In this document: positions 506 through 62,858 of the stretch, piece by piece
How the letters are laid out: each line of letters opens with the position of its first letter
Numbering within the stretch: the first letter of the stretch is position 1
Program-made: the position numbers and the translations under genes
The notes under the pieces: model-generated
Told to the model about the DNA's origin: nothing
Database searches by the model: none
Seen by the model: only the letters and a program-made list of their open reading frames with translations
Source of the DNA: Cyanidioschyzon merolae
Taxonomy: Eukaryota
Reading direction: 5' to 3' (one strand)
Assembly (NCBI GenBank): GCA_000091205.1
Contig: AP006490.2
Length of the DNA: 64,000 nucleotides

Positions 506-2577
506 ACATGGAAAAGCGTATCGGGCACGGATTTGAGTCAAAGCAGCGATCGCTGCCAGCGGAGAGAGCGTAAACGCTTCGCACGAAGGCAACGTAGATG
601 GATCGAAATCTCTCCGCATGTTCTTCAGCGTGGATCGCCTTCCAGGACTCGTTTCGTCGTGGATTGCATTGCGTTCGACAAATCCTATGTCGAATGGAAT
701 AGCGTGCGTTTGCGCTTGCACTTGCGGCGGACACAGTACTAGCCGTTGTGATCGTGAAGAGAGCAGGCAGCGGACACTGGGTACGGCGCCGGGCGGGAAA
801 CATTGGAGTGCACCGCGAGGAGCCCTCTTTACCCGCCGAAGGCATGTACCGAGCAGTGAAGAAAACGTTGATGCGCCACGGGCTGCCCCTGGAGTGGAAG
901 GCGCGCTAGACGTATAGAGACTCTCTTCTACATCCAAGAGTGTTCATTGCGAAAAGCTTTCCACTGCTGCATACAAAGAAAATGACCACGGTAAGCGATA
1001 CGTTGGTCGCGACTACTCTCTATGTATCAAATGCATCGACAACTGCGGAAACCGCAAAATCATGACTTTAAAACTGCCATCTACATCCTTCCACTGCTGA
1101 TCACGGGGCCGGAAGGAAAAGACAGATCATCGTATTCAGAGCCGGAGGTAAGAGACAGGCAAGTATGCAGGAGTGGGAAAGCCCGCAAGTACTGGTGCTG
1201 ACGACATTAAGAGCAGGCCCAAACTTTAGAGTCCACACTCGTGTTAGGCAAGTGGACCTCTTGCATGACAGCCGGGCACGGGTGTAACAATATGTCCGAA
1301 GAATCCACAGGCGCTCACGAATGAACCAGACCTGTCTGGATTGTATGCCCATCCGAATCGCATGCTTCCTCCGTCGAATGTGTGATCAGCTCGACTTGCC
1401 CGTCAGGTGCATCCTTCAGGGCACTCATGCTCGGCTGGTGTCGTTCGTCGGAAGCAAGCTAGATGCTGTTCGTGGACGAACGCTGCGACGCCCACCTTGC
1501 CGGGTCGGAACGCGACTCAAACGATGCACACCCGTCAGCTCCGATACGTTCCAAGACAGTCTCGCATGTGCATCAAGTGTTTTGCTTAGACGCCCTTCTT
1601 CGCCTTCGTCGCGTGCGGTCATTTGTTCCTTCCTCCGCCTCGAGGCTCGGTACAGGTTTCACACGAACCTCTTTCAACACCGGTTCATGGAGCGCTTCCG
1701 TATCCCCGGCTGCGGTGCCAAGTGCCTCCGTGGGTTTCTCTTGAAGCTGATGAACGTGCTCTGCATTTCGAGAAAACTCGACTCGCTTCTGCGGCAAAAG
1801 CCGTTCGGCTGCGCGCAGTCGTTGGCGGAAGTACAACCACGTACCAGCGAGAAGCAACACCGTCACCCCGTACGATAGCCATACTTCGGGGTACGCTCGA
1901 GTGATGTCAAACACACCGATTCGTGTTGACTCAGGCTCGTTACTCGGATAGCTTGAAGGCTCTGCGTCAAGCGGTGTGGCGCCCCGCTCTAGCGTTGTCG
2001 CAGCTCCAGTGCGGGTCTCAAGGGGGCTACAAAAAATGAGCCCCTGCCCTAGAGCGAACTTTTTCACAGTACAGCCGGCTTCGTACATATACGACCAGAG
2101 CGACATGGCCTCGATCATTAACTTACGAAAAGGTCACCAGACCCTATCCATATCTTCGCTCGTAACCAGCCAAGTGGGTGCGTTCTGCGAAAGCGTTTGT
2201 CACTGGCGGGCAGCATCATCGAAAGCGCCGCTGTGGCGTCGTGGCTTGCAAGTCCTGTTAGTGTCTTTCAACTCAGTATGTGCAAGCACCACCCCTGTGG
2301 TGTACAGTAAGAGATCGAAATCACGATGCAATGTACCGCATAGATCGTAGAAGAACTGCGTGTTGGATATCTATTCTTTACTGAACAGTGACGGAGGACT
2401 GCATTCTCCTCTGAGGTCAGTTACACTACAGCATTCAGGTGGTTGAGGACCACTGAAAGAAAGAAGCATACGCGCTCCGCATCATAAACCGATATTCTTA
2501 ATGAATGCATGCTACCAGTCGTAGAAAACGACCGACTGATCACTTTGCGTTAGGCGAAAGCGGCGATAATAGACACC

Positions 2578-2910
2578 ATGGGCGCCTCTGTTTCTCAACA
2601 GCTTGTTCGTGTGATCCTGAAAACACTGGAATACGGTTGTGAAAAAAGCGTCCTAGTTCACGTCCGCCCATTTTCCACCGAAATCGCAACGACAGCGTTC
2701 TTGGAACGTCACTATCCATATGAAGCACAGGAAAGTCGGTTTCGTTTTTTTATCGATGATACCTTCGTTGGGCGATTCTGTTGTAGCGTATATGGGTATT
2801 CGCGGAACAGGGTGCCCGTGTTATGCACGACTGAACTCGAAGAGAACGACGACATCATCATTTGTTGGAGCTGTAGTGGAATTATTTGTCGGCCTCAGTT
2901 CCGCCCGTAA
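2578..2910 (+). pseudogene. Tc1/mariner-like (DDE_3) transposase fragment
   Basis: The translation LVRVILKTLEYG...FFIDDTFVGRFCCSVYGYSRNRVPVLCTTELEENDDIIICWSCSGII resembles Tc1 transposase (HTH, the first-D region 'sDEskF', then the ...VWG.FS.G region). It is ~45% identical to the fragment in the inverted-repeat arms (59067..59465 and 63092..63490). The ORF is truncated. Confidence 0.5.
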
Positions 2911-3299
2911 AGCAGGCCCGTACAACAGCACCAACGACTTTGTCGAATCATTGAGGACGTTTTCCTGACGTCTGGCGACGCCCTTACATTAGGAAAAGGT
3001 GGTATTTCACCATTACCCTTCGTGTTCGAGCTTTTGCTTACTCTATCGGGGTAGAGCAGCACTTCATTCTTCCGGACGCTCCGTGTTTCAACTGCATCGG
3101 ATCAGTGTTCTCCATCATGAAACATAACCATCGCTCCACTGGGCGAATCGCTAAATCGTCCAGCACACGGTGACATGCTGGGGCATATTTCCTCATTCTC
3201 GTGCAATCTCTTCTTCTTCTGGGAAGATCGTCACCTACTGGCATTAGAAAGTGCAATCATTTTCAGAACAAAGGAGAGAACGATCTGGGATGTACACTT

Positions 3300-3520
3300 C
3301 AGAGCGTCGAGAAGGAGACAAGGCAGCGGAGCGCTTTGGTGATAGAGAAGTATAGAGAGCTCGCAATGCAGCAAGTGGCACGGAGGGCACGAGCTCTACC
3401 AACCCCTGCACTGACGAGTTCCACCAAAGGCAATAAACGCATGGAGTTCGTGCACTAAGAATTCAACGCCGCCATCTATATCAGACGATATGCAATGCTG
3501 AAGACAAGACCTAGGGGCGT
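3300..3520 (+). pseudogene. Fanzor/TnpB-like RuvC-III remnant
   Basis: ...LTSSTKGNKRMEFVH then a stop, then EFNAAIYIRRYAM continues the RuvC-III signature (D/N-x-NAA-x-NI) seen intact in copies c and d. Broken by an in-frame stop. Confidence 0.5.
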
Positions 3521-3739
3521 GACGCGAGCCAACGTTATGAAGCAGTCTCTCAGGCTCGAAGTGTGTCTGGATGAAACCCGAAACCGATAGCATCGATCTG
3601 GTCGAAAAGTGCTGGAAGGTGGCGTCTGCGCGTGGGTATGCATTTACCCCACATTGTCGTACAAAATACTTGCGCCAATCATATGTAGTTCCCTTGCGCT
3701 TTCACCTGCTCTCTGTGGGCTATTCTTCGAGCAGTATGC

Positions 3740-18249: not shown

Positions 18250-19096
18250 TCGGCCTCTTTAAAATAAGTTGCACTGCTTCCTCGAACCGCAAAAGCAAAT
18301 CAACGACTCAGCCGGTTCTCCCGGTAGTTTCGACCACGGCTTCAAACACGAGGAAATTTTGCCTCAAAGCGGCTGCTCCAGCCGCACCGCAAGAGGCGCA
18401 CCCCACGGAGCTTGCAACCCTTTTGGACGTAGCTTACAATCAGTTGGCTCGGACTTCCTTTCGGTGCAGCTATTCCCATTCTAACCATGGCTCGAGGCCG
18501 CATCCGCTCTTGTATTCTCTAACTGCACTTGAGTTCCACCCTCAGATGCGTATCATCAAATGCTTTTTCGCAGTTTATGGCGGATGCATTCGAAGTGCGT
18601 TCATTTTCAAACATAAAAAATCCAAGGGAAATCTATGGACATCGAAGGCGGGGATCCTCAAGGGCCGTCATTGCCGAGTCCCAGAAGAAAAAACGAAAAA
18701 ACGTCTTATCGCCTACCATCGAGTAAAAAAAGCAAGCGACGACGGCGAAGAAGAAGATGGGAAATAGATGAGAAAGGGTGCTCGCCCGACAGAACGATGA
18801 AGAGACTGTGGTAGCACTGAACCCACCACTTCGAGCAGTCCGTGTAACGGTGAGTCCAACCAGCAGTGCCGCACGGAGGAAGCTCGTGAACCGGGACATT
18901 AACGCTGCCACCAGTACCAGGACATGTGCGGTGCTGAAGACGAGACAACAGGAGCAGATGCGATCCAACTTTTTGGGGCCAGACTCATAGGGTCGACGTG
19001 TGCGCGAGGAAAAACTGAAACCAAAAGCAGGCGGCTCGTACAACTGCCTGGGAGGCGTCTGCGCTTGAGTAGATCTATATTGACCCTCCGTGGTGG
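18250..19096 (+). mobile_element. Fanzor/TnpB-like element remnant (copy e), 5'-truncated
   Basis: ORF 18778..18990 reads TVVALNPPLRAVRVTVSPTSSAARRKLVNRDINAATSTRTCAV, a decayed RuvC-III matching TVVAYRSRVLAILALMSSTRGNKRMEFVNRDFSVAINIRTCA of copy c. The upstream DNA at 18500-18700 aligns with 45800-45960. The 3' module is hairpin CAGGC..GCCTG followed by GGGAGGCGTCTGCG at 19027-19063. The 5' boundary is approximate. Confidence 0.5.
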
Positions 19097-19378
19097 TGAA
19101 ACGTTTTCGTTATGCTGACAAATATAGGTAAGTTTCGTTGAGTGGAGGATCAAACGCGCAATCTACGCAGATCAACGGGGCATGCGTCGCACTTCCACAC
19201 GGGCGTCACCGGAATGCGCGCCATTGCGGTCGGAGAACTCCACGTTCCGCGTGCAAAGGCGGACGCGTTCGCTGCGCTCCTGAGTGCTCAAGTTCCGCAA
19301 CTGGTTTAGGAGCCCTTTCGACGTCACGCAGGCTCTGTATTGGAAAGAGCTACTTCTAGGGCTGTCCAAGAACTTCCC

Positions 19379-32026: not shown

Positions 32027-33739
32027 AAAAGCTCCAAAGGAATGATCCGTTTTCCCGTTAGTGCGGGCGACTTGCTAACCAACGGCTGTGACCGCAGCGC
32101 CAATCTGCATTGCGCTCGGCATTACTGGATCTCATGCGCAGCCCAGGATTCCGCATCTCGACGAGATGGATTTTTCCATCAACGCAGAGTTTTTGATGTA
32201 TTTTTTTCAGTACATGGTCTCCCGAACGCAACAATGGTGCGTGACGGACTATGGTGTCGTACCCAAACTTCTGCACTCGCATCCAACAAAGGAAAATGTA
32301 TTGCTGCAGTTATTGCGTTTCCGAACGGTGCGGGTGGCAGAAGATCGACGCGTGTTTGCTGTACAATTGAGTCGCTGAAAGGCTGAGTGCTCATTTGATC
32401 AACAGTATTATCGATTATCCCGGAGAAATTGCGTGAAAATTCTGGAAATGTGTGAGTTCAGGGGCCTTAACGGAACCCTAACGAGAAAAATGCATCAAGG
32501 TTACGTTCCAATTAGCGCTGCTTGGTGCAAGAGCGCTCTAGCCCGAAAATGTCAATGAGCCAACTAGATGTCTCGCAGTCTGGTGTCTAATACCGGCTCA
32601 ATTCTCTGTCCAGTTTTCGCACGTCGGGCGCAGAAGCCGGTGCAGCAAAAGCTGCCCCATTCTACGCCATGGGAATATATTACTTTTGCAGTTACTATGA
32701 ACACACTGGCTCGAGACGCATGAGCATTCGTGGAAACTGCTCAGAACCCCCGAATGAGACAAATTTTTCTAGTTCTGCAGATGCTCCGAACGACTCGTAA
32801 AATGCCCTCGCTTGCGGTGCTCAAATCGAGTGGAGACATGCTGCCGACGGATAAAAAAATGGTCAAGGCCATTGATCCAATGTACCCCTAGTGGACCTGC
32901 ATGCTTGTTTCGTACGAATCCATACAATAAACTAATAACGTGATTGTGCCCCGATCGAGAGCCATAATCAGAGGGAATGGCGATATTCCCCCAGATAGTA
33001 CCAACTTCCATGTAGAAGCAAAAGCAATGCCCACATACGAGTATGGTTTTGCGATTCGCAAGATTTCGAACCTAGCAGTGAGCGACCTATGCATGTAATT
33101 TCGAGTCAGCCGAATCTGTATCATTGCCATGAACTAGTTATGATGTGTTTACATAGGTAGCTTATTCGTGTAGATCGGGAATCGCGAAGCGTTCTAGACG
33201 ACAAATAGTTTGTATAGGCTCGTGCTCTACAGAGCTGAACAGGTCTATGAAGTCTATTATGGGTCATCTGAGCAGGTTATGAAAAGGCGTATGAAAGGTG
33301 CCTTGCGAAAAGGGTCCGGTGGTGCGGAGATGGTTAAGGACTTTGCTGCTGGAACGTTTAGGGCCACTACACGAAAGCTTCGTGGATTGTACCTACTGGT
33401 ATTCTTCGCCTGGTTTCGCATCATGCCTATACGACAAGCAATACGTAATTTATAACAGAAAAGTAAATTGAATTGAGCTCATTTGCTGAAAACCTTTCTA
33501 TGAAGAATACTATGTGGTTTCAGATGACAACGTTGAAGCGGTCGCTGTAAACAAAATAAGGCCTTTGTTAGAACGACGACTCTTGGTATCTGTTAATGAG
33601 GTACCACCTTTCAAACTCTGAGCGGTTTCGCTTATCATGCTCTCAAAAGCATTTAAGGTGGGTGCCGGCATTGACATCGTCTGTGTGAATATTTGCATTT
33701 TTCGTTGGACATAAAGGCGGCGGTCAATGATACAGACTG

Positions 33740-34450
33740 CTTCACAACTGTGGAGGGCAAATATGTCTCCCTACCCGCAGACCCGTCTCGCTCTTTTTCA
33801 ACCGGCGTCTTGCTATTGTTTTCAGCTTCTCCTTTTAACCTTCGAGTCTGGGAGACTGTCCGACAAAGTTGTCTCGCGTCAGCTCCTCGGGGCCCGACTT
33901 CAGCAGTATACATCGTCGGCTATTGATGGAGGCTTGAAGACTTAGTCCACGAATTCTATGCGTTCACTGCCTCAGGTGGAACTCATCTATGCAAGGATTG
34001 CTCGAACTCGAGCTCACTTTGCCGCCGCGGCCTCGTTATTGTCCAGTCGGGCAAGCCCTCTTTCACGACTTTCTCTCCCGTACTACTTCGTCGTCGTCAC
34101 TCATTCGTCTTCGCTCGATGGTTGGCAAGAAGAGGATTTTCGTCTTTTTCCTAGTCGCACGCGATGACGGCACTCCAGGATCTCAGACTTCCATTCCGAG
34201 AACATTCCCTTGGGTTTTTTGTTTTTGAAAATGAAATCACTTCGAACAAGTATGCTATAAACCTCGAGAAAGCATTTGATTATGCTCACCAGGGGGTGGG
34301 ACACAATTGAGGTGGAGGAATAAAATCCCTTCGTGGACGAATATCCGCTAACGGTTAGAGCTAGAATAAGAAAACCAATACGGAATTGAAGCCGTAAATG
34401 CCAGTGCATACTCTCCGATTCTCCACGCTTGATCCGCTTTTTCGCCATAT
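33740..34450 (-). mobile_element. Fanzor/TnpB-like element remnant (copy b), 5'-truncated
   Basis: Minus-strand frames match copies c and e: IIKCFLEVYSILVRSDFIFKNKKPKG vs IIKCFFAVYGGCIRSAFIFKHKKSKG, and YTAEVGPRGADARQLCRTVSQTRRLKGEAENNSKTPVEKERDGS vs the copy c tail. The 3' module on the minus strand (plus 33745-33805) reads GACGGGTCTGCGGGTAGGGAGACATATTTGCCCTCCACAGTTG. Confidence 0.5.
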
Positions 34451-35877: not shown

Positions 35878-35920
35878 GCCGCTTGGCGGCAAAGTCCCTG
35901 GTAGGGTGTGTCTGCGCGTC
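35878..35920 (+). repeat. solo fragment resembling the element 3' module
   Basis: GCCGCTTGGCGGC hairpin followed by AAAGTCCCTGGTAGGGTGTGTCTGCGCGT. The same GG-AGG-GTGTCTGCGCGT core occurs at 3613-3635 in copy a. No adjacent ORF similarity. Confidence 0.3.
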
Positions 35921-42112: not shown

Positions 42113-43547
42113 AACCTAATCGTAAAAGAGATGCACGAAACGATTGCAAAGCCACCCAACGGTGCTATGGCACAGCAGCCTCTCCGTGGCACGACCTTCG
42201 GAGCCGGATCACTGAAAGTGACGAGGAACGATCACAAGTGTTACCGTTTGAAACTAAATACGAGCCTCTTGGCTTTCCGGGACCGACCAGAGAAGATGAA
42301 TTCTGACGAAAACCCAGTATTGGAGGAGCGGCGCACTCAGAACAAGACTTTGCAGTGGCATCTGCGATTCGGAGTGCGTATCCATGTGCCCTACATATGA
42401 ACACGAGTGACGCGAGCCATATCTTTTCATAGTTTTGACCAAGGGCGCCGACAAGAGGTTGTAGAGAGAGAAAGAGAACGAGCGCATGGCAGAGCTTTGC
42501 ATAGAAACAGCGGCGGCAAAGGCCAGTCCTCGAACTGGTGGGCCCTGCAGTTGTGCCCGCCCGTGAGCAGCGAGCATTCTAATAGGGGAAGAACGAGGAG
42601 AAACTAACCGCTAACTAGCAACTCGATAACAGTGCTGTTTGACATTGATAGTAAGCGTTGAAAAGGGGAAAGTTTCCGTATCTTCGAAAGCTTACCCTAT
42701 AGGCGGAAGGTCCCGCTAGCCGGACGAGTCTCCAAGGATCGTGCTTTATGCTCCTCCAAGTGGAAGGTGCTGTATTGAAATCTGAGCGGATCGTCCGCAA
42801 CGCAATTCATTCTGGGACTAGGAGCGCGTATGCTGCGTCTGGGCGTCGCCTTGGTCGCAGTGGGCTCTTTGTAGATCGGTTCGCGCTATCGCAGGCTCCC
42901 AGAATAATTATGTACTCCGACGTCGTGTCGGATGAATTACGCCTCGAGCCGACGCCCTCAGTGGAATGGCAATGCCGTCCTGTATCCGTGCAGCATCTGC
43001 TTCAGCGGGATAAGCGCAACGGCGGGTGCTCACGGCAGGCAGTCGTCGCAGGACAGAACGTGCGAGACGACCAGTATATCCGAGAGGAAATATCGGTAAT
43101 GGAACTTGAATGTAAGTGCTTCATGATGCACGCCTTCCCGGAAGCCAGTCTCCGTTCCGAATTCTGGGATCCATCGTAAATGTAAACTTTTTGTCATCTG
43201 CAAAAATCTGCGATTCGGAAGCATCGTCAATAATGGACGCTTCTTTTGCTAGTGTCCTGGGTAGATAGCATCGTCGCTCTCTGAGCATGGCGGTTTTGAT
43301 GTGGTACAGACTGTCGCTATGGCGCTGTGTGCCTGCCTGGATCGCCTCTGTTTCATTCAGCGACAGTACGTCTTTGAGTCCTTGTTCGCGTGCCACTGCG
43401 GGCTTGCGTGAAAGACTGAATATGCGTTTTCCTTATGTTTTCATAGGAACGCGCCCACTGTCTTTTTCTTGAGCGCTTGGAAGACTTGCTACACTTGTTG
43501 CAAAAGAGGGAACACTGTTTCGGCAAACCGGGGAAAACTTGCTGGTT

Positions 43548-44471
43548 ATGCCCACACAGCGCAGGGACCTCGAAGTGCAGCGATCCTATGTTTTTTTCAC
43601 AGAGCTTATTTCGCATGCAGAACTATATTCACCACCTCTGGAGGTTACCAAAGCGCAAACTTTGATTTCTGCCGTTCAAGATATCCTGCACAACGTTCGC
43701 GCTGGTGATTCAACGCTCGCCGCAATACTTTGGAAAACAATACCGGTCCACAGTCGCTTGTCGGGAGCGGCGCACTTGAACGCTTTATCAGGTCTGGCTG
43801 CGATCCTTTCAACGATACACTTATCTTCGATAGCTCACAGCTCGCACTTGGTTCGCTCCTGTTTTAGGCGAACTATTCGAGAGCTCGAATCATTTGGGCC
43901 GAAGAGCCTAAACCGTGGAAGTAAGCTCTACTCAGCAATAATTCTTTTCGGCATGCTTATTCACGAGCGAGTGATCAGCGCTGAGGCGCTGCTGGTTTTG
44001 TGGCAACATCTACGGGAATGCTTTGTTCGGATACTGGGTGCGGGACTGAGTTCCCCGCAGGAAGCGATGGACTTGGACGCCGCTGACTGGACGCTACATG
44101 CTGCCCTGGATATTGCATATATAACTGGCGATATTCTTGCAAAAGAGGAACCTGGGTCCAAAATTTACACTGGCCTATGTCTATTCAAGGAGCGCCTTCG
44201 GCGCGCAATATGGGAGGGCGTTCTAGAGCATCACGCACAACCGTGCCGTATGTGCCACATATCCTCCGAGCGCAGCCTTGCGGAACGAGCGGTAATCTTT
44301 GTCGAGGCTTTGGATCGAAACGGTGCTGGAGTTCTCCAACGGAATGCGCATCGGGCATCCACGGATCTGCTTAAAGAGATATGTATGCCCCCTGAGCTCA
44401 AACAAGGTGTCCACCGTTATCCATGCATCTCATTACCCGCATTTCAGAATAGAAGGGAACGGGTCTTGTAA
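43548..44471 (+). CDS. hypothetical protein, alpha-helical (possibly MIF4G-like)
   Basis: 310-codon ORF. The track start is TTG; the first ATG is at 43548. The helical repeat text (SAIILFGMLIHERVISAEALLVLWQHLRE) is weakly reminiscent of MIF4G/ARM-like folds. No firm assignment. Confidence 0.4.
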   Translation: MPTQRRDLEVQRSYVFFTELISHAELYSPPLEVTKAQTLISAVQDILHNVRAGDSTLAAILWKTIPVHSRLSGAAHLNALSGLAAILSTIHLSSIAHSSHLVRSCFRRTIRELESFGPKSLNRGSKLYSAIILFGMLIHERVISAEALLVLWQHLRECFVRILGAGLSSPQEAMDLDAADWTLHAALDIAYITGDILAKEEPGSKIYTGLCLFKERLRRAIWEGVLEHHAQPCRMCHISSERSLAERAVIFVEALDRNGAGVLQRNAHRASTDLLKEICMPPELKQGVHRYPCISLPAFQNRRERVL

Positions 44472-45649
44472 ATCGGGCTTACATGCTAAAATTTGGGCCT
44501 CTTCCGACTATCGTCGACTCTAGCGGTTGCGGGCTCTTCTTCCAACTGCGTCTTTCTCTTCTCTCATATCGCCCGCCATAAATGCGTCGATTTTTACTGT
44601 AACTCCAGCGCTGTTTTTGGCAGTCGAATGATCTTCACTTCAGGCTGAAGTTTCGATTTCACCGCTTGCGGTTGTCGTTTACCCATGGCGCGTACAGGCG
44701 ATAGTTGAGATCTGCGCTACGCTTGCGAATTTCATCTTATTCATATAAACCCTGTGTGTGGCCTTCACAGCTTTGACACTTGAATGCAATCAATAGTTTT
44801 CATGTATACACCACACTCCCCGTACCGCGGGCTGCCTTCTAGCAGAAGAACGCTCGCTTTATCGCCGGGTGCATGCCCGCGATGGCAAGAGAAGGTTCGC
44901 ATCGATGCTCTATTTCGTTTACGCTCCTGGTTCCGTACTCTAAGATCACAGCTTCGTCTAAACAATCCTGTTTGCAACTAATTTAACCGCTGCTCGTGCA
45001 AACGCATACTAATTCATTCGATAGGTCACTCCCTGCTTCCCATCACGTCCTTGATTGAGTTCTAGATTGGTTTGAACCATAGTCAAAAAGTTGGAGAGTA
45101 TGTTATCACCAATCCTCTGCTCATTGTTGTTTCCCGTGCAGTTGAGTACTTTTAAAATGCAACGTTACCAATTATGGAACAAGCATCGGAAGGAAGATCC
45201 AGGCTGGACATCAAGTCATGAAAAATTCCGTCCGTCTTAGCTATTCTCTTGCAAATCCGTAAGGCATGCTCCATTGGAAGCGCTTGCTGCGATGTTTGGA
45301 GTCCGGGCCCAATACCACTTTCCATGCAAGTAGAAGCGACGGAAGCTTCTGGGAACATGTACCCTAAGACGTACTGCGCTGCAGCGGAATATCGTTCTGT
45401 TACTAGCCGGAAAGGGAGAAGGAGCTGGCATTCGAAACGAGTCTCGTACATTACCAGAGGAGGTCTGGGAACTTTCTGAGTAAGATTTTGAAGATTTTAT
45501 CAAGGTCGATATCGACTGTTTTCCTCATCAATATTGCGGAGCGAATCGCTTTGCCTACGAGTCCCCTGAGGCCGAAAGATCGAAATTTTGAAGAATGCGT
45601 GATTTGTAATTGCTGAACATGAGCAATATAGAAGAGTGAGGCTTGTTGA

Positions 45650-46387
45650 GAGAGTTGGATAATGTTTTCGGTAATTTTGGGATCCCTTGTTCGTGGTCGT
45701 CGCGAAACATCTGGAGTCCGATGACTTGACAAATTCTGTCGGCAAAGTGTTGAAGGAGCCAACCTCAAAAGACAGCCGAGATTCTATAACGACGTATGAA
45801 TGCCAGAATCCTTCAAGTCTTTCACCTGAATTGCGTTCCAGCCTCAGGAGACTACAATCAAATGCTTTTTCATGGTTTATGGAAGATGAGTGCGAAGTGC
45901 GCTCATTTGAAGAAATAAAAATCCAAGGCAAAGGTATAGAAGTTGAAGCCCACGATCTTGGGGGCCCGCTGGCACCGGATTTGGAGAAACTACGAAAAAA
46001 AATCCTCATCTCGCCGACAATCTTGCGAAGAATAGCGAACGACGAAGAAGAAGAGAGGAGGTAGACGAGAAAAGGTGTTTGCCCTACTGGACAATGACGA
46101 GACTGTAGTGGCATATAGGTCACGAGTTCTAGCAATCCTTGCATTGATGAGTTCAACCAGAGGCAATAAACGTATGGAGTTCGTGAACCGAGACTTCAGC
46201 GTCGCGATCAATATCAGAACATGTGCGTTGCTTTACACGAGTCCCGAGAAGCTGGCCCAATTCCTTCTTCGTGGGACAACTTCTCAGGCTCGAAGTGTAC
46301 AAGGAGAAACTGAGACCGATAGCACTCGACCGGTCAAAAAGGACCGGGAGGTGTCTGCGTGTGGATATTAGTTACCCTACACGGTCG
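45650..46387 (+). mobile_element. Fanzor/TnpB-like element remnant (copy c), 5'-truncated
   Basis: ORF 46075..46371 carries an intact RuvC-III signature (GNKRMEFVNRDFSVAINIRTCA). The 3' module is CCGGTC-AAAAAG-GACCGG hairpin at 46330-46347, then GGGAGGTGTCTGCGTGTGG, ending ~46387. Frameshifted relative to copy d in its tail (46223..46507 frame). Confidence 0.55.
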
Positions 46388-46606
46388 AGACACATTTTTT
46401 GTTTCGTTGGCAGTGAACTGCAGGAATCGAGCGAGTGGTTCCGCGCTCCACTCTTATTCAAGACAACGTTCCTCGCGGATTCCCAATCACAGAGAACGAG
46501 AGGTTGACAAGATTCAAGTATTGAAAACTGTCGCTCCTTACTTAAGCACACACTTAAAGCTCGAAGCCTTTGAGTGAACGAAGTGCAGAAGAGTCTGTTT
46601 GCCTCT

Positions 46607-51501: not shown

Positions 51502-54500
51502 CGCTATGAGCCGGCACTACAGTGAGCGAGAAGCGTCGTTCCTGCCAAGTTTGGGGCGTAGGACACCATACCTCTTCCACCGCATCGTACAAGACGAGAT
51601 TCTTGAGACCGTCGACGCAGTAAAGCCTTCCTCTCACGCGCTGGCGCTCGTCCTGGAGCAGCACTAGAAGTTCACGGTGAAGCAGTGACTCAAGGAACGC
51701 CCTTCCTTCGTTCGCATTGTGGACGCCCATGAGTTTGTAGACGTCTCACCTGTAAAGCGAGATGCAAGAGCCTACGCAGCTACCGCTCTCAAAGTGAAGC
51801 ACATAGCTTGACGGCTAGCGCATTAAGATAACATTAATAGTTTGGATCTCTATTGTATGGGAACTCCGACCAGACGGAAGCTGCACACAAGCAGCAGCAC
51901 ACAGCCTGCCGTTCCTTGCACTCGAAAAAAACCTCATTTGTCTGCAGTGTTCCACGGGGGCGCCAGCCTCCCTCGTGGAGTGCGCACCATGGTGGCGTTC
52001 GCGAAAAACTTAATGTCCTCTTGTCTGAAGCCTGAAATCCCGTGTATTTATGGTGTATCAGTGCAAGTCTGAAAGGACATGCCCGTATACGCAAGCTCTG
52101 CCCGTGGTTAACGAGTGAAACTATGTTGTTTGACGCTTGCGATGGCATTGTTTAGCCTCCCTTTCACGGCCCGATCTAAGCGACTGTATCCCAAGCGCTC
52201 CAGCGAATGCCTCTGCTACGCCTGACAAACCGGGAAACCATGTCGTTAGATTGATCGAGCCTCCACATTCTCGGGTTTCATCATAAACTGGAACCGGTGG
52301 CTCGTAGGGACTCGTGTCAAGGTATTCATCCAGCCTTCACGCCGGGTGTTCATCTCCAAATGGAATTGGTTGAACGGAGGAGCGTCCGTGCTAAAGTCGG
52401 GATCTCCCAGTCGCTTTTATGTAGAGGAGTGAAATGCAGAACACGTATACAAGCACATTCCTCTCGGTCTTATTTATTTTTCCCATTGGTAGTCAACAAA
52501 ATCACTGTTGCGTTTGTACTAGAGAAAGACTGCAGAAAGACCTGATGCCCTCATTGCTGGACATCGAACAAACCGGCTTTACCTCTACAAGCCAGTTATT
52601 TGATGCTAAGCATGTGGACCTACCGCCCTTCTCGTAGTCCTCATTCTGAGCACCGAGCACCAAAAGCAGTACTCATCAGTCGCTATCTACACGACTGTCT
52701 CCTCCTCAATCATTTCCACTCGATTCTTTTTCGAAGAAAGACTACTGAGGAACCCACAAAACGGTGATCACCCTTTTCGTCCATACGAAGGAGACAAAGA
52801 AACACGGACTGATAGCAATAAAATCGCGCTTCTAGAGGAGACCGTCGAGGTTTTTTGCAGTATGCTGTCGCTTTGCGAATGAAATGAGAACGTTCGTTAC
52901 GGTACGGACGGTTGTTCGTCTCATTTGATGCGGCTTCATTCAGGAGAAATGCTAGACCTATTAATAGGTAATCAGAAGAGTGCAAGCGAATGCTATTAAA
53001 GCCGAGAGGAGCGAGAAGGACGATAACAGCTCTAATCGCGATTCAAACATATGGTTGCGTCCAAATTGTCCAATGGACATTATTGTGCAGCACCGTATCC
53101 TTCACTGAAGCACTCATCCAGTCTTTCTTCATACATTCTTGTGTCCTGCTATCAGACAGCATCGATTCCCTTGTCTTAAAAGAGGGCAATTGTACGCAGG
53201 CAGGATTCGCACTCAGCTGCTCTTCGTCCCAGCATATTATCCCTGGTTGTGTCATGTCGTCAGCATTAACCACCTTGTCAAACGACACTTCTACCCTACA
53301 GCTGCAGTAGACGAGTCAATCGCAACTGTTGCACCATTCTTCGAAGAGTCTTTGAAGGAGAATTTGTGTCCAGTGTTCATTTGTCCTGAACTGATTTGTG
53401 GCTCCTCTGCTTGTCGCCGGGAAAGAGCCGAAAGGCTCGCAAAGTTTCGATATCTTTCTCGCGATGTGGTAAGTGACGAAGATATTCCTGAAGATTGATA
53501 AGCTACAGCGTTGGACATGATGGAGTGCGCAATGCCCGTGCTCATACTCCTTCCAAAAGAGCATAGAACGTGTGAAGAAAATCTATTCTCTACGATTTTC
53601 ATCGATGAGTTCAGGTTGACACACGCATTACGAGCGCGGATGCACGCTGAAACTGATACGGAAGTCGACAGTGCAACAGGAGCCGATACACGAGCTGTTG
53701 TATGGTAAACTGACCAACAGCGAGATTACGAAGCCATCAAAGGCAAGAGACTTGATATTACGTGATTTCAGTAGTAATTATGCGCACGAGCACCTTCTGC
53801 ACAGAGACTTGAAAGCTCTGATCAAAATCCGGAAATGGTCCCGGCCTCCAGAGCGCCCAGTTCCTTTATGCCAAGCGAAATTTCGAGCAATTGTTTTTTG
53901 CACAGTGTGGTCACGAAGTTGAAACGAGAATGATTTGCCATTATAAGAGTCAATTGCAAAGAGAGAGGACGGTGGATTCTCGCACGGAGTGAGGTACTAG
54001 AATGGTACGGTCCACATTTCAAGGCTGGAGCGCTATTTATCCAACGCAAATGGCGTCGCTGGGCACTTAGCAGACGATAATGGTGTTCATTTGTTCGATA
54101 TTACTGAGCATGCATATAGCTATCCCTGATTTGGCAAATTTTAATTACACTCATCGATTCTGCAGCCGAAACTCTACGACATCTGGCCTTCCCAAAGCGC
54201 GCGCGTCAGTCATATTATCGAAAAGACGCTGGTCTGCTACAATTTGGCTTGCTTGTTCTGCTCCCCGATCGAGACTCTTCGTAAGAGTTTGCTCGCAAAT
54301 ATCAACCGCTCTGGCTGTATCGAACGTCGCTTTGGTACAGGCGTCTATGATGTTGATGTCCGCAAGGCCCTGCTAAGCTAAAACCAAACGTTTCACGACG
54401 ATCGAGGAAAGCTTTTCAAACGAAACGCTGCATATTCGTGGGAGAGTTTGTATCGAGATTAGGCGTATTGCACCGATCGAGCATCGAGAAATAGACGACG

Positions 54501-56337: not shown

Positions 56338-56422
56338 GCTGAGAACCCGCTGCCGACAGCGAACGCCTTTCAAAAGAAAAACGTTGCTGCCGGCGGTGGA
56401 CAGGAGCAGCGAGGAAGCCGCC

Positions 56423-57252
56423 CTAGACAAGACGTCTCCAACTTACGTACAGACGCCTCCCAGTCTCTTTCGACCGGCCACCCACTACTGGTTCCAACTT
56501 TTTCTCATATAATCCTACCTTAAGCGGTTGTCCAACAAAATATTCTCTTGTCAACTCCGGAGGTCTTCTTTCCATCACCGCACATTTCCTTATATTGATA
56601 GCGGCGTTAAAGTTTCGATTCACAAACTGCATGCGTTTCTTGCCATTGGTAGTTGGACTCACTAGTGCAAGTAGTCCACGAACTTTCGTCCTCCTTTCCA
56701 CTTGCTCTTTCGTCAGCGCTCCGAACATTTTTATATCCTCAGGGGTCTGCTGGCACTTTTCATCTCCAATCTCTGACGTTTACACCCCAATTGGTGGTGT
56801 GTATTGGTCGTTCGGAACTCATCTATCGGTATCGTGACGAAACGGTATGCGCACTCCTTGTACGCTCGTGTCGTTGGAGATGGCGCACACCTTTTTTTCG
56901 ACGCCCAGCGCCTTGCTCCGTATGCCACTACGAGCCTCTGACTCTTGTGCTCCTTCAGGGCGCTCAACTGATTGAAAAAGTTCGCGAGCGCGCGCCGCTT
57001 CCCACAATACAGGTTCACACGCAGAGGAGCCCACCGGCGATTTGTATACTCTTTCCACAGCGCCTCCCAATGAGCAGCGCGAACTTCCATGAATTTCAGA
57101 AAAGTCTGAAAGTCCGCTCCGCGGCTCGTCACCTCGCTCATAGCTTCCAGGTGGTCCTTCATTCCTTCGTTCCACATCTCGATTTTCTTCCTCGCATTCA
57201 TCATACCGGATTCTCGATAGTATCTCGCTCTCGAGAGCTTTAAAAGACGCAT
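56423..57252 (-). pseudogene. Fanzor1/TnpB-like RuvC nuclease C-terminal region (RuvC-II + RuvC-III), frameshifted or intron-containing
   Basis: ORF 56731..57252 ends ...QRLVVAYGARRWASKKRCAPSPTTRAYKECAYRFVTIPIDEFRTTNTHHQLGC. This aligns with ISDra2 TnpB, as I recall it, at ..VVEDL...LEYKAKWYGRELIIADRFFPSSKLCSNCG. The canonical RuvC-II E is replaced (VVAYG) and a D-E sits in the pre-zinc-finger IDEF position, which matches the Fanzor1 pattern. ORF 56423..56728 carries GKKRMQFVNRNFNAAINIRKCA (RuvC-III, D/N-x-NAA-x-NI). The two ORFs are in different frames, and the zinc-finger cysteines are largely missing. Confidence 0.6.
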
Positions 57253-58556
57253 GTCTTTCTGACTTAAGTTGCCTTCAATGCCTCTTCCGCGCGCTTGGGT
57301 GCTGCGATGGCTATAATATTCGTGTTTCTGGGGTCCGCGCCAACGACAACGTCGTTCTCATGTACTTCTCGCGTCGCATGACCCGCCTCCTTCTCATCTT
57401 CATGCTTCGCCGCATCAACGACAAAGTCGGTCTCCTGCACCTCCTGCGTCGCAGGTTCCGCATCCTTCTTTTCTTCATGCTTCGCCGAGTGCGAAGCCGA
57501 AGACGGAACTGGACGATCCGCCTTCAAGAGCCGATAGTGTGCACATACGGGTACTCCATCGCTTTCGGTTATCCCCGTGAATATCTTTTTCTTGCCCTTA
57601 TTGAGACGTTTGAAGTCGGATATAGTTTTCCAAGAAGTCTAGAGGTTTCCACCAATAGATGCCTCCCCGCTTACATCTAACTCCGAACTGATCTCCAGCA
57701 TTACGTTGTGAATGTCGCTGGCGTCGATTGTCACAAAATGTGACTTGACGCCGCCGAGAGCAACGACGCTGAAGCGCCTCTCCGGAAACACAGCCATCCG
57801 TTTCGCCGACTCTCTATTTTCCCCCTACTCATCTGCAGTTCGGCCTTGCGTTCGAATTCTCGGTTCAGGAACACGAAATAGCGCAGGATGAGGGGATAAT
57901 ATCTTTTTCCATATCTGATACCTATTCTGCTGGGCTGACCAGCCCCAGGACCGCACGGTGCTCTTGAGCAGCCGCAGGGATCACAGAAGCTGCATTCGTG
58001 CTCTTGGTTGATGTCTTCTTGTCGACAAATTCGATCTCCTGTCCATTCTTACTATCGTTCGTGATGCTGGCAATGATGGTCCATCTCGCCCAGTGTGAGA
58101 CGCCCAAGTAGAGAGCAAAATTGGAGCGTTTCATGAAGCGTTCCAGGTTCATGGCCATATGGGTCTTTAGGTTCGTGAGGGACTTGATCGCCCCGTATTC
58201 GTAAATACGCGAGTCACCCCTCTATCGAGTACCGTTGAAGCGGTAGTTGGAGTGATGTTCGTGGAGGGCATGTAATCGCTCATTTCTCATCGACATTTAC
58301 CCTGTGCCAAATATTAGGTCACCAATAAAGGTCTTGTTGAAAAACTCTTCCGGAATCTCGAATATTTTGATGTGCGTGACGTCGCGATACATCTCCCTCG
58401 CCATATACATCAGTCCCAAAGAGGCGTAATTAACACTCCTGGAGTACGACTCCACACGGTTTCTGACGGCCTTTTGCGTCTCTTGCTCGTAGGGGTCCTT
58501 GATATGTCCAAGAAGACAGGCGTTCACTACCATCTCGTCGTACTCTCATCTTTCAT

Positions 58557-59698
58557 GCAGCATGTGACATCGGACCTCCTGCATCTGCTTCTTCGTTTTC
58601 TCGTGTTCCTCTTTGCTCGGCGCGGTTTTTCTTTTTTTCCCGGCGGCCGGCAACATCGGCCCTTCAGGATCCCGACTTGCATGTGCGCTGCTTTCCTTTG
58701 GCGTTTTTATTTCGTCAAGATGATCGCACGTCTTCTTGCTCTTAGATGGGGCCTTCTCGGAGGGAGGGGGACTTTCGCAAGAAAAGCGACATGTGCCCCC
58801 ATGTTTTAGCGTGTGCAGAACGCTCAGCGATTTACCCAGCGCAGTGTTCATCAAAATTCTCGATAGAAAACGCTCCTTAGATGCGGCCGAACCACGGCGT
58901 GTACGAAGTAATGAGAAGCAACCCTATCCCTACAGATTCGGCAAAGACTCGAACGCAAGGGGAACGGTAAAACATCACGTTGCCCGACAGAGGGATGTTT
59001 CCAGACGTCAGGGGAAGAGTCTGCAATGATTCGACGCAGTGGTCGGTACCGTTGTATGACCGCTATCTACGAGCGAAGCTGAGGCCACCAGATGAATCCA
59101 CTCCACCCGTACCAGATGATATTCTCGTTCTCTTTGAGTTCGATCATACACACTATGGGCGCCCTGCTCCGCGAATACCCATGTACGCTCCGACAGTATC
59201 GTCCGAAGCAAGTCTCATTGACTAGAAAAACAAATCGATGCCCCTGCGCTTCAAACCGATCGCGACGATCCGAAGACGCTGTTGTTGCGATGTCGTTGGA
59301 CGATGGCCGAGCGTGAAATTGGTATTCGTTTTTCCGACTGTATCGCAGTGATTTCAGGACCACACGAACAAGCTGGTGAGTAAGAGAGACACCCGTTGTG
59401 GCTTCTATCATCGCTTTTGCCTTCCACGCGGTGATGAATCGGTTGTTTTTTACCACGGACCCCAAGCACGCTTTGTGAATATCGGTTTTTTGATACGGAG
59501 CGGGTGTAGTGGTTTCTTTCGGTGTTCCTCAACCAGCTGAGTACTCTCGAAAGACTGACCTGAAGGAGGAATACATTACTTGCACGCTTCAGTCAAGGAT
59601 ATATATCCTACATGCAAATCGCCTATGTTCTATACGGTACATTGCAGAGTGATATCGATCTCCTCCTATACACTGCAGCAGGGGTGAAACGTAATTGA
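58557..59698. repeat. left arm of a long inverted repeat (identical at the protein level to 62859..64000)
   Basis: All ORF pairs mirror with x+y=122557 and identical translations: 59251..59532 with 63025..63306, 59067..59465 with 63092..63490, 59092..59316 with 63241..63465, 58980..59225 with 63332..63577, 58736..59029 with 63528..63821, and 58372..58809 with 63748..63993. The inner junction, checked base by base, is TCAATTACGTTTCACCCCTGCTGCAGTG. The arm probably extends further left; the window end limits the comparison. Confidence 0.9.
59067..59465 (-). pseudogene. Tc1/mariner-like transposase fragment (in left inverted-repeat arm)
   Basis: ...ITAWKAKAMIEATTGVSLTHQLVRVVLKSLRYSRKNEYQFHARP...HRFVFLVNETCFGRYCRSVHGYSRSRAPIVCMIELKENENIIWYGWSGFIWWPQL shows an HTH followed by the DDE_3 first-D region. 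The first D is mutated to N (NET, against DDT in the 2578 copy). Truncated. Confidence 0.5.
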
Positions 59699-59996
59699 GT
59701 TGAAAGAGCGCAGCTGGGAACATCGACTGTGTCGCAGTTCGCGCGCCCTGTACCGCCATTGAAATCATCGCGATCGCCGCGCTAGCGCGGGACACCATCG
59801 ATCCGATCCGCATGGCAGCTCGCGGGACGTCATCGATCCAACGGAAAACTATTTTTCGACGGACTGCTCGCATCATGAGGGTCTTTGAGAGCCTCAAATA
59901 TTAGGCTGAAGTGAAGTTTCGCTAACAATTTGGGTCCTTGCTGCTTTAAGTTGAGGTGTTTTGGTTTAGTGAGCACCTCATCTTGGGACGAATTGG

Positions 59997-62300: not shown

Positions 62301-62858
62301 ACATCAGCACAAACCTGAAGATGCAGCCAGTCGTGCATATTGTGAAGCGGTCTTCTCGTTCCTAGTTGTTACTGCAGGAGATTGCTTGTCCGGCTGATGC
62401 TGGGTCTCACGTATGTTAAGGGCGAGAGCAATCAAAGTGTAACCTCCGTCGAATGACAAAGGGAGCGCAACGATTGCACCTCTGTGGAACGCGGAACTCA
62501 CTGCTCTCAACGCTTCGCAGAACGACGTGGGCCATCAGCTCGGTGCGCATGTTTGCTTTGCAGCTCTCGAGAATCAAATGAACTGCTGGCGTAGCGCAAA
62601 ATAGTGCCCAATTCGCGCGCTAGTGCTTGCGTAAATTTACAAATCGTCGGGATAGAGAATTTCTCAAGTCGGCGTCAGAACAGCCCGTTCTGCCACAATC
62701 CTACACGGTGCAGCTCCACATAAAACCCTTTTCCCAACCGATCCACGAATCCGACAAGACTTTTGCTCACTTGTGGCGCAATTCTGCGAAACATGGACTG
62801 AGCAAAGGAGAAGAAGGAGCCTGTCGCTTATTCTCGTGTACAACTAACGTCTTTCGAA

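Follow-up and report, generated by a model that had tools for sequence, protein, structure and literature searches.

The 3' module of a Fanzor1 repeat relic on Cyanidioschyzon merolae chromosome 8 belongs to CMe-1A and may fall within a guide-RNA-producing region of live copies

Repeat copies in the window and the family they belong to

The stretch of DNA analysed in this study (the window; 64,000 nt) covers the left end of Cyanidioschyzon merolae 10D chromosome 8; its assignment to this chromosome follows from exact protein matches. At positions 46327-46387, a first-pass annotation had singled out a short hairpin followed by a GGGAGG-N-GTCTGCG module, recurrent at the 3' end of several Fanzor-like repeats and put forward as a candidate omega-RNA or right-end element. 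Judged by sequence similarity, this segment is part of the published Fanzor1 repeat CMe-1A—and its detection amounts to a re-discovery of the 3' end of a known repeat. The family was described in the red alga C. merolae with a 3169-bp consensus that encodes a 734-aa Fanzor1 protein and has no terminal inverted repeats (TIRs) (Bao & Jurka 2013, PMC3627910). The novel interspersed repetitive element reported earlier, with a WSV486-like ORF and 253 copies stated to be transcribed (Nozaki et al. 2007, PMC1955436), is the same family. A 3' RNA is discussed in neither paper.

Five copies in the window, designated a to e, carry the module (Table 1). In blastn comparisons, copy e showed 80-87% identity to the CMe-1A consensus and covered positions 871-3169, with the hairpin at 56460-56477 and the module at 56448-56461; beyond these come the stop and 60 nt of tail, and the copy reaches its right end at 56364. 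Copies a-d displayed 68-77% identity and matched the 5'UTR/start region and the 3' coding end, the segments covered being 2849-3084 for c (at 72%), 800-969 and 2871-2970 for both b and d, and 2739-2972 for a. Copy c, in which the module under study resides, joins consensus positions ~800-969 to ~2849-3084, adds a subfamily-specific tail and retains only the last ~100 codons of the Fanzor ORF; its ends are approximate, to about +/-15 nt, the right end being placed where 13-15 copies stop aligning.

Table 1. Repeat copies and sequence features in the window
Feature	Coordinates	Strand	Description
Copy c	45806..~46412	+	~610-bp internally deleted, non-autonomous CMe-1A derivative, 'group 2'; from blastn and the b/c/d alignment
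Hairpin hp1 of copy c	46330..46347	+	CCGGTC / AAAAAG / GACCGG; ancestral codons D-R-S-K-R-T-G
Module of copy c	46346..46359	+	GGGAGGTGTCTGCG; ancestral codons G-R-C(R)-L-R
Group-2 3' tail of copy c	46360..46412	+	TGTGGATATTAGTTACCCTACACGGTCGAGACACATTTTTTGTTTCGTTGGC
Copy e	56364..58729	-	Near full-length CMe-1A pseudogene; several stops and frameshifts; RuvC-III reads NRN
Copy b	18505..19119	+	Group-2 derivative; module 19050-19063; only an out-of-register 5-bp stem
Copy d	33723..34331	-	Group-2 derivative; module decayed to GACGGGTCTGCG (33776-33789); no stem
Copy a	2275..3680	+	Fanzor 3' part and group-2 tail behind a different 5' segment (2275-3191, IS630/Tc1-like reading); module 3617-3630 with a 3-nt insertion; no stem
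5' segment upstream of copy e	58730..59707	-	Replaces consensus 1-870; weak IS630-like HTH and first-D motifs
Solo copy of the CMe-1A 5' 640 bp	42588..43198	-	Equivalent to TE-N2_CMe (Bao & Jurka); 78% identity

Hot-spring metagenomes yielded 118 copies of the family, and the architecture of copy c recurs among the metagenome copies. Compared with the CMe-1A consensus, copies b, c and d, together with the 3' part of a, represent an internally deleted subfamily of ~610 bp with a different tail after GTCTGC, of which 13-15 non-redundant copies were recovered and for which we found no description. Copies b, c and d hold ~230 nt of 3' coding sequence and ~170 nt of 5'UTR/start, together with the altered tail. 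In the window, the ORF-less derivatives of this length (b, c, d) were located just upstream of host gene starts and in the same orientation, in four out of four cases. The segment upstream of copy e is 100% identical to an inverted duplicate at 62850-64000.

The proposal that these repeats are relics of a Fanzor (TnpB-like) gene was borne out by their similarity to CMe-1A, by RuvC motifs and by a profile match. The consensus translation contains, in its C-terminal half, the D/E/D motifs VVGADPGNT, VDEFRTSYT and FVNRDFNAAINI, and a 41-sequence family profile aligned by hhalign to the Pythium ultimum PUl-1 Fanzor1 with a probability of 84% (E 7.3e-6, over 54 columns around RuvC-II). The consensus protein has no canonical C4 zinc finger between RuvC-II and RuvC-III; the region holds only THHELGC and, after 10 aa, KC, possibly a variant of the finger or a degenerate one. 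The Fanzor consensus had no significant match in Pfam, NCBIfam or PDB (phmmer), and an AlphaFold2 model of protein P0057 built with 41 homologues was too poor for a fold comparison (mean pLDDT 41.5). Nucleotide diversity among master copies (pi 0.18/0.15/0.27 at the three codon positions) points to purifying selection on the protein; its nuclease activity is presumed. The copies in the window are dead because copy e carries NRN at RuvC-III and copy c only the last ~100 codons: all five are pseudogenes, copy c is an inert relic, and nothing functional is left at 46327-46387.

Reading frame, recurrence and hairpin of the module

The module corresponds to consensus positions 3056-3085 of CMe-1A, and its recurrence was confirmed: GGGAGGYGTCTGCG, with up to two mismatches, occurs five times in the window against 0.79 expected, a count reached by none of 100 shuffles. 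All five sites—3617 in a, 19050 in b, 46346 in c, ~33782(-) in d and 56461(-) in e—belong to homologous repeat copies, which share the module through descent from common master copies. A further site at 35878, previously taken for a solo fragment, proved not to be a family member, as nhmmer profiles of both subfamilies gave no match there at E<=10; we attribute it to chance, GTCTGCG alone occurring 13 times in the window.

The overlap with the nuclease gene was likewise upheld, the module covering the last ~18 codons of the ancestral Fanzor ORF. In the ancestral frame, GGGAGG-N-GTCTGC encodes Gly-Arg-Arg-Leu of the basic Fanzor C-terminus, which ends in GGRSKKTGRRLHVSWRRFV followed by the stop codon, and the hairpin arms correspond to Gly-Arg-Ser and Lys-Thr-Gly codons. 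The family consensus places the stop 27 nt after GTCTGC. The stop codon at 46369-46371 in copy c belongs to a frame-shifted pseudo-ORF; the ancestral frame of this copy reads ALDRSKRTGRCLRVDISY, with no stop. The core AGGCGTCTGCAC ranks among the most conserved 12-mers of the last kilobase of the family (pi 0.084, third codon positions included). Between the two subfamily consensus sequences, the module forms an island of ~85% identity, against ~50% upstream and ~45% downstream; it stands out because both subfamilies keep it while their flanking sequences diverge, from ~30 nt before the module and directly after GTCTGC, where the tails differ.

A coding explanation should be considered at this point, namely that the module has no RNA role and is kept by descent and as part of a basic C-terminal peptide (RSKKTGRRL, which might serve in nuclear localisation or in binding nucleic acids). 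Any function as omega-RNA or right end would then be confined to the ~60 nt that follow the stop. Both subfamilies indeed keep the frame and the peptide (GGRSKKTGRRL vs GGRSKKAGRRL), the pattern of diversity by codon position fits coding constraint, a synonymous change breaks the hairpin stem, and the scaffold of SpuFz1 lies wholly downstream of its stop codon. However, third codon positions in AGG-CGT-CTG-CAC are nearly invariant (pi 0-0.2 vs a baseline of 0.27), a relic heavily truncated at its 5' end, from one ancient locus, begins within the module at consensus position 3073, and the omega-RNAs of GtFz1 and TnpB overlap the ORF end. We consider an exclusively coding role of the module possible but on the unlikely side.

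The first-pass annotation had read the hairpin and GGGAGG-N-GTCTGCG as a selected structural module of an omega-RNA, marking the 3' end of each copy, with a stem that changes in sequence and stays complementary. Part of this description stands: copy c does contain the hairpin, overlapping GGGAGGTGTCTGCG (46330-46359 in all), and the stem is also present in copy e and in both subfamily consensuses (CCGGTC/GACTGG and CCGGTC/GGCCGG); a double change from U-A to C-G was seen in one lineage (L036/L037), and the module is a conservation island. The claim of a differing and still complementary stem fails, however, in the window copies themselves. The stems of c and e are the same apart from one C/T, copies a and d have none, and the stem CAGGC/GCCTG of copy b is out of register, its 5' arm being shifted by 7 nt and its loop measuring 13 nt. 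Similar hairpins are also common by chance, perfect 6-bp examples occurring at 1.4 per kb in the window and at 6 per kb if one G.U pair is allowed.

Covariation tests on 52 + 13 non-redundant copies did not uphold complementarity preserved through sequence change either. Across CMe-1A copies, hp1 was fully paired in only 7/48, and 25/47 had a G.G mismatch because of a synonymous T/G (ACT/ACG) polymorphism, which leaves the stem disrupted in over half of them. Pairing and covariation showed no excess over shuffled alignments, the controls matching or almost matching the observed values: over the complete predicted structure, paired cells made up 73.2% vs 72.1% in shuffles and the covariation score was reached by 12/500 shuffles, and for group-2 hp1 the observed pairing was reached by 229/500. 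RNAalifold returned a consensus of three pairs for group 1 and none for group 2, and synonymous-site diversity over the hairpin was not depressed (pi3 0.26 vs a baseline of 0.27). Two candidate compensatory changes from C-G to U-A, in copy c (GTGTCT/AGACAC) and in L050 (GAAATG/CATTTT), were rejected, each consisting of paired CpG transitions in a single decayed copy. The hairpin is best described as an ancestral palindrome that is compatible with an omega-RNA and not demonstrably under selection, and common descent together with coding for the basic C-terminal peptide explains the conservation of the module equally well. A selected module is largely refuted and, with the element running 55-90 nt past it, improbable.

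Right end, tails and terminal structures of the element

That every copy ends with the module did not hold, as conserved sequence extends to ~46412 in copy c. In copies of the CMe-1A type it reaches 86-90 nt past GTCTGC (~55-90 nt over the subfamilies), and the module lies ~115 nt from the right end of the transposon at consensus position 3169. The family consensus of the group-2 tail contains GTGGGTAT and, further on, ATTTACCCTCCATGGTCGTGAAACGTTTTTCGTTTTATTGAC, with possible hairpins GTGTGG/CCTACAC and CGAGACA/TGTTTCG. Over its whole length, the non-coding tail is no less diverse than synonymous sites (pi 0.27-0.40); within it, the blocks GTCTAGGGCG and CGCCACTACTGTACAC, separated by a variable loop, have a pi of ~0-0.2 per site.

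Could the module be a terminal inverted repeat of a Tc1/IS630-like carrier, present at both ends and unrelated to the nuclease ORF? In its favour, a weak resemblance to an IS630 N-terminus was seen in the translated 5' segments of a, f and g (Pfam HTH_33, E 0.1; NCBIfam IS630, E 0.029). Yet no inverted repeat was found between the module or tail and the 5' end in a, b, c or e+f, and no copy shows one to its own 5' end; the IS630-like segment is wholly missing from b, c and d, and the description by Bao & Jurka includes no TIRs. For the module itself this explanation is refuted, and we assign it hardly any weight.

A different matter is whether the conserved 3' region acts mainly as DNA, i.e., as a right end working in cis, whose subterminal hairpins a putative transposase would recognise in an element that lacks TIRs. 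The family has defined ends with neither TIRs nor recognisable TSDs, the two tail variants each possess their own perfect terminal hairpin (CGTTTTTC/GAAAGGCG and CGTTCGA/TCGAACG), and a palindrome, AAACGTTT, is found near both ends. When reverse-complemented, the CMe-1A left end is also similar to the group-2 tail, with a score of 27 vs a 99th percentile of 25 in shuffles, but this similarity is weak and is absent from most individual copies in local alignments. No transposase was identified. Moreover, the right end and the omega-RNA coincide in all TnpB and Fanzor elements studied, and a DNA role does not exclude an RNA role. A mainly DNA-based function is compatible with the explanation we prefer below; as the principal role of the region, we deem it conceivable rather than likely.

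The last ~115 nt of live copies as a candidate omega-RNA scaffold

Our preferred explanation is that the locus holds a dead CMe-1A copy and that, in live masters, the last ~115 nt probably correspond to an omega-RNA scaffold—a reading we favour with some confidence. In such masters, this interval, which starts at the hairpin, includes the stop codon and extends to the right end, would probably be transcribed as part of the Fanzor mRNA and processed from it into the scaffold, with the hairpin and GGGAGGCGTCTGC inside the presumed scaffold region. As in other Fanzor1 systems, DNA flanking the element would supply the guide, and the terminal DNA would presumably double as the cis-acting right end for transposition. 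Of the original omega-RNA proposal, the placement survives, since the position from the ORF end to the right end fits Fanzor1 omega-RNAs; the covariation argument and the claim that the module is the end of the element do not. The module itself may thus lie inside a guide-RNA-producing region of live copies.

The omega-RNA role of this region appears plausible on the basis of its position, the conserved non-coding blocks and modest folding z-scores. The terminal 117 nt folded modestly better than shuffles in the consensus (z -1.46), the group-2 consensus (-1.76) and copies c (-1.79) and e (-2.17), whereas z was about 0 or positive for copies b, d and a. The mean over 41 copies, which are not independent, was -1.29 vs -0.11 and -0.67 in coding windows and +0.30 in the flank, values that are weak for a structured RNA. 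No Rfam 15 family matched at gathering thresholds when the full window was searched, and positions 46150-46500 gave no match at E<=1.

Characterised Fanzor1 systems offer a useful frame of reference. The SpuFz1 scaffold measures 75 nt and follows the stop codon, the GtFz1 RNA overlaps 17 ORF codons, and the SfAV Fanzor1 scaffold is ~120 nt long (Saito 2023 PMC10432273; Jiang 2023 PMC10530073; Yoon 2023 bioRxiv 10.1101/2023.08.09.552727). Like the omega-RNAs (fRNA/reRNA) of SpuFz1, GtFz1, SfAV and CrFNuc, the CMe-1A candidate spans the stretch from the 3' end of the Fanzor ORF to the right end, its ~115 nt fall within the published Fanzor1 range of 75-200 nt, and its partial ORF overlap parallels that of GtFz1. 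Unlike the described Fanzor1 scaffolds, it is unrelated in sequence, belongs to no Rfam family, has no IR/TIR at the right end, and is a candidate known from DNA, with no covariation and weak predicted stability. In the TnpB systems of IS200/IS605 (e.g., ISDra2), the scaffold similarly shares its sequence in part with the 3' end of the nuclease gene and stops at the right end, as proposed here; CMe-1A, in contrast, is eukaryotic, ~3.2 kb long and devoid of TnpA, and hairpin-based recognition of its ends is conjecture.

That the ~610-bp ORF-less derivatives retain the 3' terminal region counts in favour of the RNA reading and invites a comparison with Spizellomyces punctatus, whose 'ghost loci' have lost the ORF but retain IRs and the omega-RNA region (Saito 2023, PMC10432273). 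Copies b, c and d are likewise short, ORF-less and multiplied, and keep the Fanzor 3' terminal region; unlike the ghost loci, they carry ~230 nt of 3' coding sequence, ~170 nt of 5'UTR/start and an altered tail. A more far-reaching proposal would be that live CMe-1 Fanzor1 copies of Cyanidioschyzon, a thermo-acidophile, use a ~115-nt omega-RNA with a scaffold running from the CCGGTC/GACYGG hairpin, within the last 18 codons, to the right end. The ~610-bp ORF-less b, c and d would then act as 'ghost' carriers of a guide RNA whose scaffold has an alternative tail, placed preferentially upstream of host gene starts. We advance this extended version as speculation and think it rather doubtful. Should the last ~115 nt of CMe-1A indeed encode an omega-RNA, no guide-RNA scaffold of a red-algal Fanzor1 would have been described before it. 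Its host grows at ~42-45 C and pH ~2, which could be of interest in the search for robust, compact genome editors, and it would help to explain how the CMe-1A family came to make up ~5% of a genome that otherwise has almost no transposons. For now, the practical value is limited, the locus being a dead relic that carries the 3' end of a published repeat.

Two other views of the family were set aside. Many blastn matches start at consensus position 2117, as they might in a LINE-like, 5'-truncated retroposed family, but tblastn revealed full-length copies with a more divergent N-terminal part; the alignments of the metagenome copies L041:2352-5508 and L028:7185-10329 cover residues 1-734. Finally, five loci that resembled a non-autonomous 'solo-tail' family starting at the module turned out to be one orthologous locus, situated beside a protochlorophyllide-reductase-like gene.

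A published Fanzor1 family on chromosome 8

Of the window's long ORFs, four match annotated C. merolae 10D proteins exactly—including CMH013C and RuvB-like, RCC1-like and RF-1 proteins, all of chromosome 8 (739,753 bp)—and Pfam matches describe a eukaryotic, intron-poor gene set. This identifies the window as red-algal nuclear DNA lying close to the left end of chromosome 8. The sequence at 46330-46359 comprises a hairpin (hp1), CCGGTC AAAAAG GACCGG, that overlaps GGGAGGTGTCTGCG. Searching the window for GGGAGGYGTCTGCG with ≤2 mismatches gave five sites against 0.79 expected, a count reached by no shuffle, and self-comparison together with profile searches placed all five inside homologous repeat copies, a-e. 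The module of hairpin plus GGGAGG-N-GTCTGCG described in the first-pass annotation is thus real and repeated. The 'solo fragment' at 35878, previously counted as a copy, is not a family member: nhmmer with both subfamily profiles returned nothing there even at E≤10, and the window has 13 occurrences of GTCTGCG by itself. Copy e carries several stops and NRN at RuvC-III, copies a-d are fragments, and every window copy is a pseudogene.

Alignment of the window to the consensus in the supplement of Bao & Jurka (2013) identifies the copies as the Fanzor1 element CMe-1A, with copy e at 80-87% identity. CMe-1A was reported to have about 150 copies with ~80% identity to a 3169-bp consensus, to code for a 734-aa Fanzor1 in a single exon and to lack TIRs, its TSDs and class not being settled (Bao & Jurka 2013, PMC3627910). 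The '253-copy novel interspersed repetitive element'—a transcribed repeat of about 3.2 kb with a WSV486-like ORF that makes up about 5% of the genome (Nozaki et al. 2007, PMC1955436)—is the same family. The earlier recognition of a Fanzor 3' end was correct, for a repeat family already in print. A 41-sequence CMe-1A protein profile aligned with Pythium Fanzor1 PUl-1 in the RuvC-II region (hhalign probability 84%, E 7e-6), and the consensus protein has the D, E and RD motifs; no canonical C4 finger was found in it. Pfam, NCBIfam and PDB sequence searches did not recognise the protein, and its AlphaFold2 model (pLDDT 41.5) was too poor for use.

Features of the window, with matching CMe-1A consensus spans and downstream ORFs
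Feature	Position	Strand	Consensus span	Right end to ORF start
Copy a	2275-~3680	+	2739-2972	3680 to 3740, fucosyltransferase-like CMH013C
Copy b	~18505-19119	+	~800-969, then ~2870-2970	19119 to 19340, ANAPC5-like ORF
Copy c	~45806-46412	+	2849-3084	46412 to 46574, MT-A70/ZZ ORF
Copy d	34331-~33723	-	~800-969, then ~2870-2970	
Copy e	58729-56364	-	871-3169	56364 to 56430 (-), 285-aa ORF, minus strand
Copy g (sixth copy, cut by window end)				
CMe-1A 5' 640 bp (TE-N2_CMe of Bao & Jurka), standing alone	43198-42588			
Segment replacing consensus 1-870 (a, f, g)	2275-3191, 58730-59707, 62850-63830			
1151-nt inverted duplication	58557-59707, 62850-64000			
PP2C-like ORF	59997-62300			
75-nt tandem duplication in copy e Fanzor ORF	57335-57484	-	~2120-2196	
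139-nt unit, three in tandem	83-499			
Divergent Fanzor-like relic	5900-8230	+		
Divergent Fanzor-like relic	52570-53886	+		
Divergent Fanzor-like relic	17185-17850	-		
Divergent Fanzor-like relic	28400-29500			
Divergent Fanzor-like relic	44100-45800			

A search at the protein level gave 305 related ORF fragments, every one from JGI or ENA metagenomes, and a pattern scan of metagenome contigs yielded 79 loci (L001-L079; 0.94 Mb in total). Together with the window, these loci supplied 118 copies of the 3' region; removal of near-duplicates left 58 of group 1 (CMe-1A-type) and 15 of group 2 (a-d type). The group-2 copies form one coherent family of ~610 bp, in which consensus ~800-969 is joined to ~2806/2870-3084, followed by a tail of its own (consensus ..GCGTGGGTAT..ATTTACCCTCCATGGTCGTGAAACGTTTTTCGTTTTATTGAC). 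Its members are multiplied deletion derivatives without the ORF, comparable to the Spizellomyces 'ghost loci' (Saito 2023, PMC10432273).

Position and pairing of the module

Identity between the group-1 and group-2 consensus sequences is ~0.9 around RuvC-III, 0.5 some 30-60 nt upstream of the module, 0.85 over GGTGGCCGGTC.AAAAAG.C.GGGAGGCGTCTGC and 0.45 directly after. The shared module is therefore a true conservation island, but an internal one and not the terminal element that had been proposed. Group-1 copies remain strongly conserved as far as consensus 3169, with about two T more, and conservation collapses beyond; group-2 conservation reaches about ..YTGAC, roughly 55 nt past GTCTGCG, which puts the right end of copy c near 46412, not 46387. 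The consensus ORF terminates in ..VVGGRSKKTGRRLHVSWRRFV*, and the module is coding: the 5' arm CCGGTC lies within GGC-CGG-TCC (G-R-S), the 3' arm GACTGG within AAG-ACT-GGG (K-T-G), and GGGAGGCGTCTGC reads GGG-AGG-CGT-CTG-C (G-R-R-L-H). The stop follows 27 nt past GTCTGC, with 59 nt more to the right end ..CGTTTTTCTTTTGAAAGGCG. The TAG of copy c at 46369 is in a shifted frame, the ancestral frame being ..FFVGQLLRLEVYKEKLRPIALDRSKRTGRCLRVDISY...

Stems that differ between copies yet stay complementary had been taken as the mark of a functional RNA; this argument did not withstand comparison across the family, and the copies argue against hp1 as a selected structure. Of 47 group-1 copies, 25 have G.G and 18 have G.U at its middle pair—the T/G polymorphism being synonymous ACT/ACG—and all six positions are paired in only 7/48. 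When the whole MFE structure of copy e was projected onto 52 copies for pairing and covariation, 73.2% of cells were paired (72.1% when shuffled), and the covariation score of 0.126, reached in 12/500 shuffles, lay within the range of unconstrained related sequences by the tool's own calibration. For hp1 in 13 group-2 copies, 73.7% of cells were paired versus 72.9 ± 2.4% when shuffled, a value reached by 229/500 shuffles. RNAalifold retained a 3-bp GGC/GCC stem alone in group 1 and zero pairs in group 2. Moreover, the stem of copy b (CAGGC/GCCTG) is not a compensated form of the hp1 helix, because its 5' arm is shifted 7 nt upstream and its loop is 13 nt, and no stem was found in copies a and d. 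The window holds 1.4 perfect 6-bp hairpins per kb, or 6/kb if one G.U is allowed. Double changes in copy c (GTGTCT/AGACAC) and in metagenome locus L050 (GAAATG/CATTTT) were set aside as paired CpG transitions in single decayed copies. Since most copies decay neutrally, the lack of covariation among them is no disproof of a master-copy structure.

The tail and published guide RNAs

Nucleotide diversity by codon position (0.18/0.15/0.27; 48 non-redundant copies) shows selection on the protein among master copies. The 12-mer AGGCGTCTGCAC has a diversity of 0.084, third positions included, as low as that of catalytic-motif codons; synonymous diversity across the hairpin itself (0.26) is at the baseline. 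Past the stop codon, conservation is high in the blocks GTCTAGGGCG and CGCCACTACTGTACAC, and the 7 nt between GGCG and CGCC are highly variable, as expected of a stem whose loop can vary freely. Two tail variants each carry a different perfect terminal hairpin (CGTTTTTC/GAAAGGCG versus CGTTCGA/TCGAACG). Over the whole tail, conservation is no greater than at synonymous sites. The terminal 117 nt folded modestly better than shuffles, with z-scores of -1.46 (consensus), -2.17 (e), -1.79 (c) and -1.76 (group-2 consensus), but about 0 or positive in b, d and a; they also outdid adjacent windows, the mean over 41 non-independent copies being -1.29, versus -0.11 and -0.67 in coding windows and +0.30 in the flank.

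The guide RNAs of published Fanzor (Saito 2023, PMC10432273; Jiang 2023, PMC10530073; Yoon 2023, bioRxiv 10.1101/2023.08.09.552727) and TnpB systems derive from the 3' end of the nuclease gene and run as far as the right end. SpuFz1 combines a 75-nt scaffold downstream of the stop with a 14-15-nt guide; the RNA of GtFz1 overlaps 17 codons; SfAV Fanzor1 has a ~120-nt scaffold and a ~20-nt guide; the ApmFNuc RNA runs 200 nt beyond the ORF; and the ISXfa1 TnpB RNA is ~150 nt. In CMe-1A, the distance to the right end is 113 nt for the hairpin and 59 nt for the stop codon, so the module could be the 5' part of an omega-RNA scaffold or lie just outside it. The candidate omega-RNA reading is a reasonable inference for live family members only, not for the dead copy c. 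Rfam gave no match, and our literature search found no paper joining Fanzor guide RNAs to Cyanidioschyzon. The rival reading of the module as a TIR was ruled out: no copy has an inverted repeat between module or tail and 5' end.

The group-2 tail (e.g., 19090-19119; consensus TCCATGGTCGTGAAACGTTTT) is similar, in reverse complement, to the left end of CMe-1A (consensus 8-30, AAAACGTTTACATTGACCATGGA), with a local alignment score of 27 (shuffle mean 19.7, 99th percentile 25); the signal is weak in individual copies. The palindrome AAACGTTT lies close to both family ends. In about 28 independent insertions among L001-L079, the first ~12 nt beyond the right end are G/T-rich with a TT or GT start, with recurrent short forms (TTGTTGGTGTGTG, GTGGTGTC, TTTGTTTCCAGGGG, TTCGCTGTCG.CAGCG) independent of tail variant; either a target preference or a terminal extension that varies could account for these flanks.

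Neighbouring genes and further repeats

Copies a, b, c and e each direct their right end towards a host ORF on the same strand that begins 40-220 nt away, copy and ORF sharing orientation in 4/4 (chance probability 1/16). Upstream of the Fanzor ORF, the segment replacing consensus 1-870 in a, g and f (the 5' segment upstream of e) translates into an IS630/Tc1-like N-terminus, with an HTH and then FLVNETCFGRY. Its IS630-type signals are weak (Pfam HTH_33, E 0.1; NCBIfam IS630 NF033545, E 0.029), and it possibly belongs to the eight 'bacterial-like transposase' relics of Nozaki 2007 (PMC1955436). The 1151-nt inverted duplication, with 99.8-100% identity in blastn and a repeat search, consists of this 5' segment and the Fanzor ORF start, on either side of the PP2C-like ORF; it touches the window end and may be longer, and recent gene conversion or duplication is a possible origin.

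Additionally, the window holds a second, much more divergent set of Fanzor-like relics (e.g., ..PLPIDEFGAVFTHNVHGC.., ..IFIDEFRLTHA..), mutually similar and without DNA-level similarity to CMe-1A. The 75-nt tandem duplication of copy e (80% identity) corresponds to an acidic/lysine-rich linker, of which metagenome proteins have ≤5 repeats (e.g., P0050). Near the window start, the three 139-nt units are 89-96% identical.
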